Origin: Octopus vulgaris
Lineage: Eukaryota
Assembly: GCA_951406725.2 (NCBI GenBank)
Contig: OX597815.1
Coordinates: 80,848,001-80,912,000 of the forward strand
DNA: 64,000 nt
Direction: 5' to 3'
Shown here: positions 5,544 through 47,406 of the stretch, piece after piece
Position numbering within the stretch: position 1 is the first letter of the stretch
How the letters are laid out: each line of letters begins with the position of its first letter
The notes under the pieces: model-generated
Database searches by the model: none
What the model saw: only the letters and a program-made list of their open reading frames with translations
Told to the model about the DNA's origin: nothing
Program-made: the position numbers and the translations under genes

Positions 5544-5707
5544 GGATTACGGCCGTTTCGCAGCTTTCTTGATATAATAATAATTTCGTTCTATTTATAA
5601 TAAATTATGTTTACATATCTGCACTAATATATATGTTATACATTATACAAGAAAATTGTATGTTCACAAATCAATGTAGATTAAGAAAACTAGCTCATCA
5701 GATAACC
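5544..5707 (-). ncRNA. Hammerhead-like motif with a stem II arm of about 135 nt
   Basis: The minus strand reads GGTTAT-CTGATGA-GC(T)AGTTTTCTT...AAGAAAGCTGC-GAAA-CGGCCG-TA-ATCC. Confidence 0.55.
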
Positions 5708-5811
5708 ATCACATCCTTGTTAAACCAACAATTGTGTGCGTGCGTCTGTGTGTGTGTGTGTGCGTGCGTGTGTGTGTGTGTGTGCGTGTGATATGTATAC
5801 AAATGTATATA

Positions 5812-6376
5812 TTCTTTTATTCTTTTACTTGTTTCAGTCACTTACCTGCGGCCATGCGGGAGTACAGCCTTTAGTCGAACAAATCGATCCCAGGACTTAT
5901 TCTTTGTAGTACTTACTCTATCTAGTACTTATTCTATCGTTTCTTTGCCGAGCTGCTAAGTTATGGGAACGTAAAGACACCAACATCTGTTGTCAAGCGA
6001 TGGTCGGGGACAAACACAGACACACATATATATATATAAATACATATATTCAACTTACGATAAAAGTAAACAAACATAGTTTGCTTTAGAAGCGTTGAGA
6101 TGTATTGAAAGATATAGAAATAATTTATTCTCAAACGCATGATAAGGCTAATGCAATAGCATGAACAGGATAAACTATCCATATATTGCAGAAAAATTCG
6201 TTACCATATATATATATATATATATATATATATATATATATATATATATATACGACGGGCTTCTTTCAGTTTCCGTCTACCAAATCCACTCACTAGGCTT
6301 TGATCGGCCCAAGGTTCCACACAGTGGGACTGAATCCGGGACCATGTGGTTGGGAAGCAAACTTCATACCACACAG
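5812..6376 (-). mobile_element. SINE family A, interrupted in its central microsatellite
   Basis: Both halves match 112-518, with about 170 bp of extra sequence between them. Confidence 0.8.
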
Positions 6377-9300
6377 TTGAAATTGACAGATAATCGTTTC
6401 GTTTATTGTTATGGCTACTCATGAGTAAAGCAAACCCGACTTTTTCCTGATTATATTTACAGTATTCTAGTCGTGGCATAACCTTCTCTCTTTTGGCAGC
6501 ATATTTTCCTATGATATAATACACCATTTGGAGTCTTAGCTATCAAAATATATTATGAGCTATTCCTCCTCGAAGACTCGTAAAAAGAAATCATTGTACA
6601 AATTTGTACCTGACAACGATGACAGTCAAGCTTACGATAAGAAAGAAACTACCGTCATTTTTTAACCACCTTCCTGTATTTTTCCTTTATATTCAGCTGT
6701 CAGTTTTTTTATGTAAATACACAAACTTACTAATATGAGAAATGTAAAATTTAAATAATTTGCTATGTAAACGGTTGAAATATCATGTTCACCCCCCGGC
6801 TAACTAAAAGTTCACAGCAAATACATATTTTTATAGTATAAGGTCAAGTAGATAGATGAGAAAGATTGATAGAAATATACATTTGATGAATTAAAAATAT
6901 ATTAAAAGGCAACCGTCTACGACGTAGAAAACTATTGAATTTGAAGCATGGAGATACAGAGGTAGAAAAATGAAAAATAGTATATAAACTAAATTTGTTT
7001 ACATATTTATGTATGAGCATACACACACACACACACATATATATGTGTGTATATTATATATATATATATATATATATATATATATACATAAACACACATA
7101 TATAAATATATATATATATATATATATATAGATATATATATATATATATATATATATATACAGATAGGCGGAGACAATAACTTAGTATGCATTTTTTTAT
7201 ATATATACATACATACATGTATATATATATAAACACATACACCCAAGAACATACACGGACGCATATATATTTATGCACATGTGTGCTGTGTATGCGTGTA
7301 TGCCAGTGTATTTGGGTGTGTAATTTAAAAAAAAAATATTCGTGCCTACACTATAACCTATCCAAGTATAATGGCTATTTTGAGTGCATTTCCGGATATA
7401 AGTACACCCAACACATAAGTTCCGTCTTTGTGACTAGGGGGTCAGTGTGCTTATGCGTACCTATGTTTGTACTGGCACTGACTTGTGGCCAGAGTACTTT
7501 TGTAACAACATCAATACTAAAGGGTAAAACGCCTTTCCAATTAGGAACGTTGGTGGGAAGGTAACCTCCTGCCCCGAGAGTTGCGCTACTGTCAATCCAG
7601 GGGATAAACTAAACATTTGGAACTGACATACATTGATTCAGACGTACATACATACACACACATATACAAATACATAAACACACGCACGCACGCACTCACA
7701 CACACATTCGTGTATATATATATATACATATATATATATATATATATATATATATATATATATATATATATATATATATATGTATGTATGTATGTATGTA
7801 TTTATGCATATTTATGCGTGTGTGTGTTTGTGTATCTGTCAGTTTATGAACGTACATTTTGGTAGCTAGATACACAGACATACAGACATGTATATATGTA
7901 AATAAATATATATATATATATATATATATATATATACAGAGAGAGAGAGAGAGAGAGACAAACTGACAGATAGATAGATAGATAGATAGATAGATAGATA
8001 GATAGATAGATAGATAGATAGATAGATAGATAGATAGATAGATAGATAGATAGATAGATTATTTGGCAATATTTGCTTACATCCCTACATGAAACCTGGC
8101 TTTTGCATAAAAACATATGTACTTCGCTAGAAAATATTACAACATCTGCCAAAGTCCTTAGCCGAACACTCTCGCTAGTCACAGGGCAGTGGTGTTTTAA
8201 CCTGCCGACTGGAAGGGCCGCGAACTTGTCACTGTAATAAATCTGAATGCCTGCCAGAAATTTCTCCAGTTTCGTTTCAAAAATATTTTAATAACTCCAT
8301 GTTGATTTATTTGGACTAGCCATATGGCGAGCGAAGGTGGGTAGTTGAGTTAAATGAAATATCGAAAACTTGAAGTTGTTTCTAGAAATTAAGAAATATA
8401 TGAAACAAAATGGGTTCAACTGGGAGCCGAAACTGATTCGTCAAAGGTTATTTCTTACCATCTGTATATATACATACATACATATATATATATATATACA
8501 CACACATATATATATATATATATATATATATATATATATATATATATATGTATATGTATGTATGTATATATATATACATATATATATATATATGTATATA
8601 TATGTATATATATATATATATATATATATATATATATATATATATATATATATATGTACATACATAGAAACATGCACAGAAACACAAACACATACATATA
8701 AAGTACTATAATCTATATGTATATATATATATGCATAAATGTACACACACATGACACAACACACACACACACACACACACACACACACACACACATATAT
8801 ATATATATATATATATATATATATATATATATATATATATATATAGTATGTGCTTTCTCGCATACGAGCAAAGCCATTGCTAGAAAGAATCATTGATACA
8901 AGTCATTGATGATGCGATGTGAGGCTCTTGTATGACTCTTGAACCTGGCCATAGATTTGCGCATTCTATTACACAATGCACAGCTGTGATGGTTAGCATG
9001 GGGAACAGGGGCTACAGTATGAAGTCTTTTGAGATGTTTTTTTCTTTTTATATATGAAATATATATTCTTTTTACCTGGAGAAGAGATAGCCTTAAGAAT
9101 CAAGATTTCTCCAAATTTGATGTGCCATTAAGTTAAAAGACAGCCTTATTCTTTGAAGATAGAAAACAGTTATGGATGCGAGTTTCTACCTCAATAAGTA
9201 TGATCAGCGCGGCAAGTGTCTGAACATATCTAAGAGACATAGCGAATATACAATAAGAAAACAAACACATGTATGAATTAAGTAATTTGCATAAATTAAA

Positions 9301-44996: not shown

Positions 44997-46789
44997 ACTT
45001 TTTCTATTCCTGAGCGTTATACTGAGCGTTGCTTTCTCCCAACAAGCTTAGATTTGGTGGCTTGGACCAGTCAGATTTGAACAGTCTCAAGTGTAACTGC
45101 CCGAAACTGTAAGGATAATTTCGTAACTTGACTGATGAGAGGAGGCTGTGAATAACCCGTACTTGTTTTTCCTGTCCGTCTTTTTATTGTTTTCTTGTAC
45201 GTCTTCGCATCGTCTCTCTGTCCGGATGTTTTATTGTCATCTGTTGCATTCTTGTTCCATTTTTTGGATGTGTATATTCATATAGCGGCGTACGTATGCT
45301 TTTGCTCACCTTGTAAGTAAGTATGTATTTAAATTTTGTACGACCCTTTTACTCTTTCATTTAGTCCCTCTCATACTTTCTTTCTTTCCTCTTTTCTTTT
45401 TCTCGCTGCCCCTCTCTCACATTTCATGGCCTTTTTTTCTTTAATTCCTACTTTTCCTCCTCGTTTATCTCCCTTGTACCTTTCTCTATGTCCCTTTGAT
45501 TTCCTCTCTTTCTCGTTCTTCCCTAATCCTTCAATCCCTTTGTCCCCTACCTCTCTCTTTTCCTTCCACGTGACCGGTGTTCGGCCAGGCATGATCTTTT
45601 ATTCTTTGCTCGACTGCCGGGCGCGAAGCATCTCTAATATTCCTGTCTCTTGACTTTCATCTCCTAAGGCTTTCACTCTACACACGTCAGCTCAACTTGA
45701 TTCGTCTTTATTAGTCGAAAGGCGCCTTTTGTTATTTTCTTGTTGCTTGTATTTGTAATTGTGTAATTGCTCTCCGTTTTCTGTCGTTGTTTTCGTACAC
45801 ATTCGCTTACTTTCTCCCAAAATGCTTAGATTTTGGGGGAAGCAGCCAGATTTAAGCAGCCTCAAGTGTAATTGTTCCTAACTGTAAGGATAATTTGGTG
45901 ACTTGACTGATGAGATGAGGCTGCAAATGACCCGTCCTTGATGTTTCCTATTCGTCTCCACATTGTCTATTTGTCCGGATTTTTATTGCTGTCTGTTGCG
46001 TTCTTGTTCCTCCTTTGGAGGAACCCTATTTTAGCCGCTGATATTCGCGATCGTACTTTTGCGACCATTACCTAACATTCGTCACCATGAGTGCAGATAG
46101 ATACGAAAGCCGAACTGAAGTATTTTTGTTTTGCTTTGTTTTTGTTTTTTTCCCAACCTCTTTTTTTCTGAGGATCGAATATCCTGTCCAGGTGGGGAGT
46201 TTATGCGCCATAAAACCGGGAAACTCGTCATTATAAGTCGACATGACTCGAGAAGGTAACGTCACTTTTTTCTTACCTACTTTCATTACTCGTGAATACG
46301 GCTCCAAGATACTCCGCTTCTCCTAGTGCACTCTGCGACGTTCCACTAACATGCAGCGTGCACTAGGAAAACATTTTTATGAGAAACAATGTCTCAGTCT
46401 TCCCTACCTCAACTCTCATCCTCGGCAGCAAGCCCATTCAGTGCATGCTGGAGATCATCTGATAAGTCAAGTAGCACCATGTCGTTTTCAAATGTGAGCC
46501 AATCAAACATACACCCACCGTTTGCGATACCACTTCCACAACGGCTATGAATGTCATTTCAGTTCATAAGTATGTGTGTGTGTGTATCATAAATGTATGT
46601 ATACATATAAGTACACACGCTCACACACGGACATACACACACACACACACATATATATATGAATATATACACACACACTATACTATACATGCGTTTATTG
46701 TATATATATAGAAACATTTATATACATGATTTTATATATATATATATATATATATATATATATATATATATATATATATATATATATAT

Positions 46790-47168
46790 AACTTATAAAT
46801 AAGGGCAAACGAAAAAATTTCTAATGCCAAATATGCCGAAATAAGACACATTGTCCATAACCATATATTTCTTTTTCCGCATTTATCACTGACGAAGGGA
46901 GGGTTCTTATGAACTAACACTGAAATCGGTCCGATATGGTAATAACGGAATTTTTTAGAAATTTCTGTCGACCTTTTTCGAGTAGCGTGCTTATTGTGTT
47001 AAATTATATGGTTATGGACAATGTGTCTTATTTCGACATATTTGGCATTAGAAATTTTTTCGTTTGCCCTTATTTATAAGTTGTTTATGAATTTAACCTT
47101 TAGGGGTATTTTTTAATATGCTGGCCATTGATAAAATTTTTTTTCGAAAAAATTCTATCCTACATTAG
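46790..47168 (+). mobile_element. Hammerhead-bearing non-autonomous element with an inverted partial tail at its 5' side; minus-strand sibling at about 43908-44300
   Basis: 46790-46866 is the reverse complement of about 47005-47081. The body is homologous to 43908-44215. Confidence 0.7.
46883..46942 (+). ncRNA. Type-I hammerhead ribozyme (same family as 44160-44215)
   Basis: TTATCA-CTGACGA-AGGG[...]CACT-GAAA-TCG[GTC]CGA-TA-TGGTAA, with one mismatch in stem II. Confidence 0.7.
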
Positions 47169-47322
47169 ATGTAAATTTTAATATATATAAGTTCGGCAAA
47201 ATTTAGATTCAGATGAATATGGTACTTAAGTTAAAGGCACCAGAATCTTGTATGGTATTATCCATATAAATCAAATGGGGTGATTATAATCAAAATAAGC
47301 AACAAGTATATCCAATGTAGAG

Positions 47323-47406
47323 TAGTACAATTGTTTCATGCTACTTCATTTTATTAAACACTGTAAGTATTACATCAGTTTTAAAATGTCGAGCATTCTT
47401 CGGCCA
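47323..47406 (-). ncRNA. Hammerhead-like motif with extended stem II and CCGAAGA core variant
   Basis: The minus strand reads TGG-CCGAAGA-ATGCT...AGCAT-GAAA-CAATTG-TA-CTA. It is homologous to 31168-31251 with pairing-preserving changes. Confidence 0.6.

Follow-up and report, generated by a model that had tools for sequence, protein, structure and literature searches.

What are the hammerhead-like motifs with very long stem II arms in this part of the octopus genome, and do they work only in pairs? The window, a 64,000-nt stretch of Octopus vulgaris DNA (GenBank assembly GCA_951406725.2, contig OX597815.1, positions 80,848,001 to 80,912,000, forward strand), had been described in a first-pass annotation as holding four diverged loci of a hammerhead ribozyme class with a covarying palindromic stem III. 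Our analysis indicates that the motifs are probably type I hammerheads at the 3' ends (pseudo-long terminal repeats, pLTRs) of Penelope-like elements (PLEs). The elements belong to the Hydra clade at loci 2 and 3, and those at loci 4 and 1 likely do too. The motifs are predicted to cut element RNA only when two copies pair via helix III.

We located the motifs as follows, with arm length counted as the nucleotides between CYGANGA and GAAA.

5545..5704, minus strand: hammerhead 1; core from C3 to the cut base 5701-5548, stem I 2 bp, helix II region 135 nt, loop III CGGCCG, predicted cut between 5548 and 5547
22862..22947, plus strand: hammerhead 2; core 22868-22941, stem I 6 bp, U4C core, helix II 55 nt, loop III CATATG, predicted cut between 22941 and 22942
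31168..31251, minus strand: hammerhead 3; core 31248-31171, stem I 3 bp, helix II 59 nt, loop III CGATCG, predicted cut between 31171 and 31170
47321..47408, minus strand: hammerhead 4; core 47403-47326, stem I 5 bp, helix II 59 nt, loop III CAATTG, predicted cut between 47326 and 47325
15373..15476, minus strand: fifth motif of the same layout; core 15471-15378, helix II region 75 nt, CAATTG

The four annotated motifs do have the hammerhead layout, with arms of 55 to 135 nt, a different palindrome in each, and GUA at the predicted cut in 4/4. The core CUGANGA...GAAA...UH of a type I hammerhead is present at 4/4 loci, with U4C at loci 2 and 4. This change is fixed in family 2 (33/38 copies) and rare in family 4 (2/33 copies), and the hammerhead core would be expected to tolerate it. 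The basal pairing described earlier (GTGCT/AGTGC and ATGCT/AGCAT) was confirmed, and the base of helix II covaries in alignments. The count of four diverged loci did not survive: loci 3 and 4 are homologous and thus not independent (187/226 bases identical), and two items had been overlooked, namely the fifth motif and, at 31277-31418, an inverted copy.

A strict filter (palindrome, stem I of at least 2 bp, stem II of at least 3 bp, arm of at most 200 nt) returned four sites in the window, namely loci 2, 3, and 4 and the fifth motif (15471-15378). In block-wise dinucleotide shuffles of the window, no site passed this filter in 200/200. The shorter pattern GAAA-palindrome-TH occurs 10 times, against a shuffle mean of 3.0 and a maximum of 9. 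Two further remnants lie nearby. At 15870-15975 (minus strand), a degenerate motif keeps GAAA-CAATTG-TA, has a broken first core, and ends at (TA)n. At 18533-18634 (plus strand), a 5'-truncated 3' end with 79% identity to family 2 carries the wobble hexamer CATGTG, a GUC site, and a (TA)n end. Rfam models gave no match at the gathering score in eight loci; short-arm motifs (L251) are among the eight, so long-arm motifs are not alone in being missed. Across the window, the Rfam hits (best 150 of 279 matches listed) were only microsatellite-driven microRNA matches, with no hammerhead.

Which elements carry the motifs? The surrounding copies are listed here, each compared with its best relative among the loci that we collected.

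5476..5728, minus strand: locus 1, a relic of about 250 nt of an old repeat family with hammerhead; 80% identity to L067 over 253 nt
22197..22993, plus strand: locus 2, 3' end of a young PLE of the Hydra clade, truncated on its 5' side and with (TA)n behind it; 95% identity to the full element L031
22238..22671, plus strand: C-terminal remnant of a GIY-YIG endonuclease; Pfam PF01541, E 9e-4 (below the curated cut-off), frameshifted near its end
31032..31281, minus strand: locus 3, 3' end of a second family in the Hydra clade, running up to (TA)n; 97% identity to L245
31277..31418, plus strand: inverted partial copy of locus 3, first core broken
47178..47529, minus strand: locus 4, 3' end of a sister subfamily to locus 3; 96% identity to L096

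The link to coding elements is most direct at locus 2, where the hammerhead lies downstream of the GIY-YIG remnant. This remnant is 96% identical to the 778-aa open reading frame (ORF) of L031, spread over two frames, and the family is young, with 94-100% protein identity among the best 150 of 14,819 candidates. The L031 ORF combines a reverse transcriptase (RT) with a GIY-YIG endonuclease at the C terminus and has RIRW and DKT motifs. A hammerhead motif stands on both sides of it, with predicted cuts 2,863 nt apart. A second element, L248, has RIRW, DKT, a CxCX5C linker, and motifs on both flanks, 4.7 kb apart. Such a flanking pLTR pair was seen in L031 and L248. Behind a copy of the locus 3 family (L038/L245), on its own strand, come RT pieces with RIRW and DKT and an endonuclease. 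Loci 2, 3, and 4 all have (TA)n at the 3' end.

We assigned the L031 and L248 proteins to the Hydra clade because their motifs fit the diagnostics in section 11 of Craig et al. 2021 (PMC8557442), namely RWx, DKT, CxxC/CxH, and (TA)n; the CxCX5C linker, also listed there, is present in L248 and absent from L031. L031 has a single ORF with RT and then C-terminal GIY-YIG in less than about 3 kb, and L248 is longer. RIRW and DKT (versus DKG) are found in L031, L038/L245, and L248, aligned with RMRWK/ADKT relatives, and CxxC and CxH are present around a conserved E and N in the L031-type protein. A Pfam search did not recognize the RT of these elements. We rejected the Naiad clade, which has an N-terminal endonuclease and DKA; here the endonuclease is C-terminal and the motif is DKT. 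At 44418-44615 (plus strand) there is a remnant of the coding region of another Hydra-type PLE, with 58% identity to the L031 ORF.

For locus 1, the evidence is a family whose best 40 scored copies are 77-81% identical and one copy, L220, with an RMRW coding fragment about 100 nt upstream (E 0.003), so its apparent link to Hydra PLEs is weak. The inverted partial duplicate at locus 3 is typical of PLE insertions. In one transcript with locus 3, it is predicted to fold back onto hammerhead 3 (-229.7 kcal/mol over 390 nt).

The motif type is abundant in the genome. We counted matches to patterns that did not require the palindrome and covered only the U4, GUA, and C11.1 forms, so that the counts are lower bounds. 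Spacers of 40-70 nt gave 8,019 matches against 99 in the control, 71-140 nt gave 1,414 against 454, and 8-38 nt gave 901 against 148; the 40-70 nt arm is the dominant class. In an unselected sample of 60 stretches of 10 kb taken at round coordinates (600 kb), nine hits were found, with arms of 54-100 nt in 9/9 and a self-complementary hexamer in 9/9 (7 Watson-Crick, 2 wobble). Among background hexamers, Watson-Crick or wobble palindromes made up 5/127, and the reversed sequence of the sample gave no hits. A run of 11 near-identical long-arm copies at G000:C2:14.63-14.74 Mb, spaced about 9-13 kb apart, suggests a large tandem duplication.

Is the palindrome kept, and if so, on what molecule? 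The 160 distinct hits among the collected loci fall into 42 subfamilies, 36 of them with an arm of at least 40 nt, counts for which the loci were partly chosen by similarity or by patterns that fix the C-G closing pair. Loop III in the 36 long-arm subfamilies is a Watson-Crick palindrome in 25, wobble-paired in 5, tandem G-A in 1, and without self-complementarity in 5. Ten different palindromes occur among long-arm hits. Self-complementarity across many families thus bears out part of the earlier claim of a covarying stem III. The CGATCG/CAATTG difference of loci 3 and 4, taken alone, was rejected as proof of covariation, as two CpG deaminations would give it.

Because CGATCG can turn into CAATTG by CpG decay, we compared mirror variants, which neutral mutation or a constraint on double-stranded DNA should yield equally. 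Genome-wide, CATGTG, with a central U-G in the dimer, outnumbers its C-A mismatched mirror form CACATG by 3,407 to 412 (about 8:1), and CGATTG (G-U) outnumbers CAATCG (A-C) by 2,019 to 349 (about 6:1); controls gave 8-20 matches. In the first 100 listed places of each variant, several amplified subfamilies of near-identical copies contribute to the wobble forms, while most mismatch forms are dispersed and diverged, apart from one tandem array. As self-pairing G-U variants outnumber mismatched mirror forms, the counts indicate that it is the RNA strand on which loop III is constrained. They also bear on a palindrome kept at the DNA level, as a protein site or through CpG mutational symmetry, with the hammerhead as an inactive passenger. 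That explanation accounts for CAATTG as CGATCG after two CpG deaminations and is in keeping with the decay in family 1, where CpG columns differ from the commonest base in 58/162 cells (36%). It would have the mirror variants equal, yet they stand at 8:1 and 6:1, and the cores are invariant across diverged subfamilies while the stems covary. We regard it as very improbable.

The CATGTG/CACATG contrast appears to favor pairing between two molecules, because the contrasted bases are adjacent and unable to pair within one hairpin. Folding predictions are partly consistent with this. Closing helix III in the monomer costs +0.3 to +0.5 kcal/mol at all five loci, and its predicted probability is at most 0.19. 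Helices I and II form with high probability at loci 2 and 4, and for these two loci the double hammerhead is the two-strand minimum. Could the monomer nevertheless cut, with a 2-bp helix III and a tetraloop stabilized by the long helix II, the palindrome being incidental? Most invertebrate retrozyme hammerheads do self-cleave efficiently, and an axolotl motif with 2 bp and a tetraloop reaches 22% monomer cleavage (PMC7229834); the high probability of helices I and II at loci 2 and 4 would help as well. The low probability of helix III in the monomer, the ten palindromes among long-arm hits, and the 8:1 preference for U-G over C-A at adjacent bases all speak against it, and we consider monomer cleavage unlikely.

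For the dimer-dependent hammerhead of a PLE, the steps could run as follows. Full elements have one hammerhead before and one after the RT-endonuclease ORF. Judging from published PLE and newt hammerheads and from folding, a single copy would be unable to keep helix III closed; two copies in one transcript would swap strands to form a double hammerhead with an 8-bp helix III. Cutting after GUA or GUC would then release unit-length RNA that may be circularized and reverse-transcribed, along the lines of the model in Cervera and de la Pena 2014 (PMC4209133) and a review (PMC6765202). As the strand asymmetry suggests, selection on source elements would keep loop III self-pairing, with the palindrome shifting through G-U intermediates. 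Finally, helix II would have lengthened to a hairpin of 45-135 nt in one lineage, presumably free to do so because there was no loop I-loop II contact to preserve.

Several observations weigh against this reading, in addition to the way in which the loci behind the subfamily counts were chosen. Locus 1 misses the strict filter, and its copy is damaged, with a 2-bp stem I and an arm folding z of -1.0, no better than shuffles. Its coding link is not firm, and locus 4 is tied to Hydra PLEs solely via locus 3. The CxCX5C linker is present in L248 and L252 and absent from the L031 (locus 2) lineage. The hexamer is not self-complementary in five of the 36 long-arm subfamilies, and in one amplified family (L133, L134, G000:C1) loop III is CCGAGG, which self-pairs only via tandem G-A. 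Copy counts are not independent, and a few successful source lineages drive the asymmetry. The double hammerhead lies above the two-strand minimum at loci 3, 5, and 1 by 1.4, 1.0, and 10.6 kcal/mol, respectively. PLE hammerheads also cleave poorly, even as dimers (PMC4209133), and a review notes the low in vitro activity of such hammerheads (PMC6765202).

Does selection act on the copies in the window? The claim that it maintains a dimer-dependent ribozyme stands in one part, as the strand asymmetry favors intermolecular RNA pairing. It fails for these copies, which decay like neutral DNA. In family 1, both cores and the closing pair are kept in 8/27 copies. Intact copies number 32/38 in family 2, 22/34 in family 3, and 29/33 in family 4, and in families 2-4 non-CpG core positions change about as often as helix II. 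The window copies are without a same-strand partner and are probably truncated relics that do nothing now. Because these relics decay neutrally, we place the constraint on source elements, where selection appears to act.

Contigs from six putative RNA runs and one run of unspecified kind were also compared; contigs cannot reveal RNA ends. Over the family 2 pLTR (L031 3081-3205), the contigs of putative RNA run X4 are 400-900x deeper than the ORF and end within about 6 nt past the predicted cut. These contigs hold an inverted junction, and the same copy extends 17 nt beyond the cut in X6, X8, and X9. They probably represent one genomic copy inside a host transcript. No intron-like joint in the arm was listed among the run contigs.

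What is the long arm? It had been described as a large stem II insertion, and our folding predictions show instead that helix II is a long imperfect hairpin, not an unstructured insertion. Folding z scores are -3.9, -3.3, and -3.0 at loci 2, 3, and 4; at the fifth motif the arm scores +0.4, no better than shuffles. Among the 36 long-arm subfamilies, z is below -2 in 21, and the arm is a single hairpin in 32. Helices I and II both covary in two alignments; helix I is open-ended, as in type I hammerheads, and helix III would be either 2 bp long or intermolecular. In 11 diverged relatives of locus 2, 10/21 pairs changed on both sides (7/12 for basal helix II pairs), as did 11/29 pairs in 8 relatives of loci 3 and 4. 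The covariation score was reached by 0/500 shuffles in either alignment, and slid controls were far lower, although the shuffles ignore relatedness, which inflates the scores, and the structures were derived from the same sequences, a further point against the dimer hammerhead interpretation. Related families with the same basal stem have arms of 55, 56, 73, 78, 80, 89, and 90 nt. From these alignments we infer that the tip is largely free and the basal 12 bp or so constrained.

Such an arm might have a job of its own, as a site where the RT-endonuclease docks onto the 3' end of the cleaved RNA, a chaperone of dimer folding, or the carrier of a 3'-end signal. Families with only 37% RT identity retain a length of 51-59 nt, the 40-70 nt class dominates the genome, and the hairpin counts above are in line with a function. 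On the other side, alignments of different family groups have no sequence motif common to their arms, the tip varies from 55 to 90 nt of arm among close relatives, and 10-29 nt suffices in Hydra-like elements of other hosts and in the genome's short-arm motifs. The sequence A(A/T)TAAA lies 10-30 nt before the cut in 5/36 subfamilies, against 1.6 expected and equalled in 7/200 shuffles; this poly(A)-like signal is not present in the locus 2 group, and the case for a poly(A) signal is weak. In a quick RT tree of collected relatives only (159 columns, long branches), four long-arm families group with an Argonauta protein and two others (SH-aLRT 93). This is compatible with a single origin of the long arm, of which it is no demonstration. 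Overall, a separate role for the arm is doubtful. We offer only tentatively the fuller version, in which one cephalopod Hydra PLE lineage gained helix II once as a functional appendage (an RT-endonuclease handle for cut or circular RNA, or a dimer chaperone), kept it across families with 37% RT identity, and now contributes the commonest layout of this type in the genome.

How do the motifs compare with known systems? The class is not new. Palindromic dimer-type hammerheads have been published for PLE pLTRs, including Hydra elements with one octopus case (PMC4209133, PMC8557442), and the window motifs are type I pLTR hammerheads of Hydra-clade PLEs with a longer helix II. The Hydra-clade hammerheads of PMC8557442 share the type I topology, the 3' end/pLTR position, and a short, often palindromic helix III; their elements share (TA)n targets and RWx and DKT protein motifs, and the set includes octopus Hydra-1_Obim. 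The Hydra rows of its File S2 have about 11-26 nt between cores (Hydra-1_oBim, 23 nt), versus about 44-135 nt here, and the only longer rows are two spike-moss PLE-X motifs flagged as deviating from the canonical structure. The PLE min-hammerheads of Cervera and de la Pena 2014 (PMC4209133), and variants with a small palindromic helix III, likewise have a dimer model and palindromes at positions 15.2-16.2 and in loop 3. They covary within genomes, and their copies are mostly solitary and truncated, with some inverted pairs. Their helix II is given as 6-8 bp, in contrast to the long arm here.

We surveyed 94 Hydra-like loci from other hosts and found the motif in 59 and none in 35. The spacer was 10-29 nt in 55/59, and the reversed control gave no hits. 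The arm in O. vulgaris, at about 44-135 nt, is two to six times as long. We set aside the other four hits (spacers of 53, 186, 186, and 186 nt), which look spurious: three fall within coding regions at loci that also hold a 21-nt motif, and the fourth has a GAAA at a shorter distance. Hydra-like PLEs with hammerheads in bacterial genome bins (L333-L348) are likely animal host contamination.

Other hammerheads resemble these in part. Metazoan non-LTR retrozymes (PMC7229834, bioRxiv 10.64898/2026.07.22.740005) have type I hammerheads with a proposed origin in PLE pLTRs; in amphibians their tetraloop is palindromic and cleavage is better in the dimer. Retrozymes differ in being tandem non-coding repeats with canonical helix sizes, while each of loci 2-4 is one 3' end from a coding PLE family. 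The discontinuous mammalian Clec2 hammerhead (PMC6155905, PMC6765202) is likewise natural, with core halves split by a very large arm; it is type III with an enlarged helix I (150-1500 nt), lies in a host mRNA, and is not a retroelement dimer motif. In the Naiad 'HHR_half_core' cases (PMC8557442 methods, File S1), 35-50 nt separate the two halves of the core; they were noted in eight PLE families, Naiad_Ovul among them. Naiad has an N-terminal endonuclease, and the Naiad_Ovul 3' end, by eye, has GAAA before CUGAUGA, another layout.

Published descriptors miss motifs of the window type because their limits on helix II size or spacer are exceeded. The descriptor in PMC4209133 limits helix II to 7 bp and its loop to 10 nt, with just two bases separating GAAA from UH, and the core searches of Craig et al. 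used a spacer of 7-17 nt (PMC8557442). The suggestion that the arm hides the motif was correct in this respect. We found no description of a helix II of about 45-135 nt in animal PLEs in the literature searched; unseen supplements could still hold one. The new point is thus the long helix II in a known PLE dimer-type hammerhead, the dimer palindrome itself being already published.

Judged from sequence comparison, these PLE-type hammerhead motifs are real, abundant, and under RNA-level constraint in source elements. If so, descriptor searches overlook the genome's commonest palindromic-loop hammerhead layout, with about ten long-arm matches per short-arm one after controls, and animal ribozyme censuses may be too low. 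The dozens of diverged families amount to a natural mutational scan of helix III. The asymmetry of G-U over mismatch would be sequence evidence for dimer pairing in vivo, for which the earlier arguments were structural or drew on weak cleavage in vitro. Young families whose ORFs are intact would allow a direct test of what PLE hammerheads do. The general concept of hammerheads or PLEs is unaltered.

The window also contains other mobile DNA. A near-intact Helitron Rep/helicase lies at 50696-55593 (minus strand), with a 1,351-aa open frame that continues in two further frames; its domains are Helitron_like_N (E 9e-58), PIF1 (E 6e-57), and N-terminal STPR repeats. An open frame at 11112-11480 (plus strand) resembles by eye a piece of Tc1/mariner-type transposase, and those at 19465-20070 (plus strand) and 60402-60941 (minus strand) resemble 3' pieces of non-LTR retrotransposons, with no Pfam match for any of the three. 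A very abundant short interspersed repeat beside microsatellites has at least 10 copies in the window, among them 323-514, 6224-6376, 35528-35716, 40975-41315, 41596-41788, 56733-56923, and 57894-58220.

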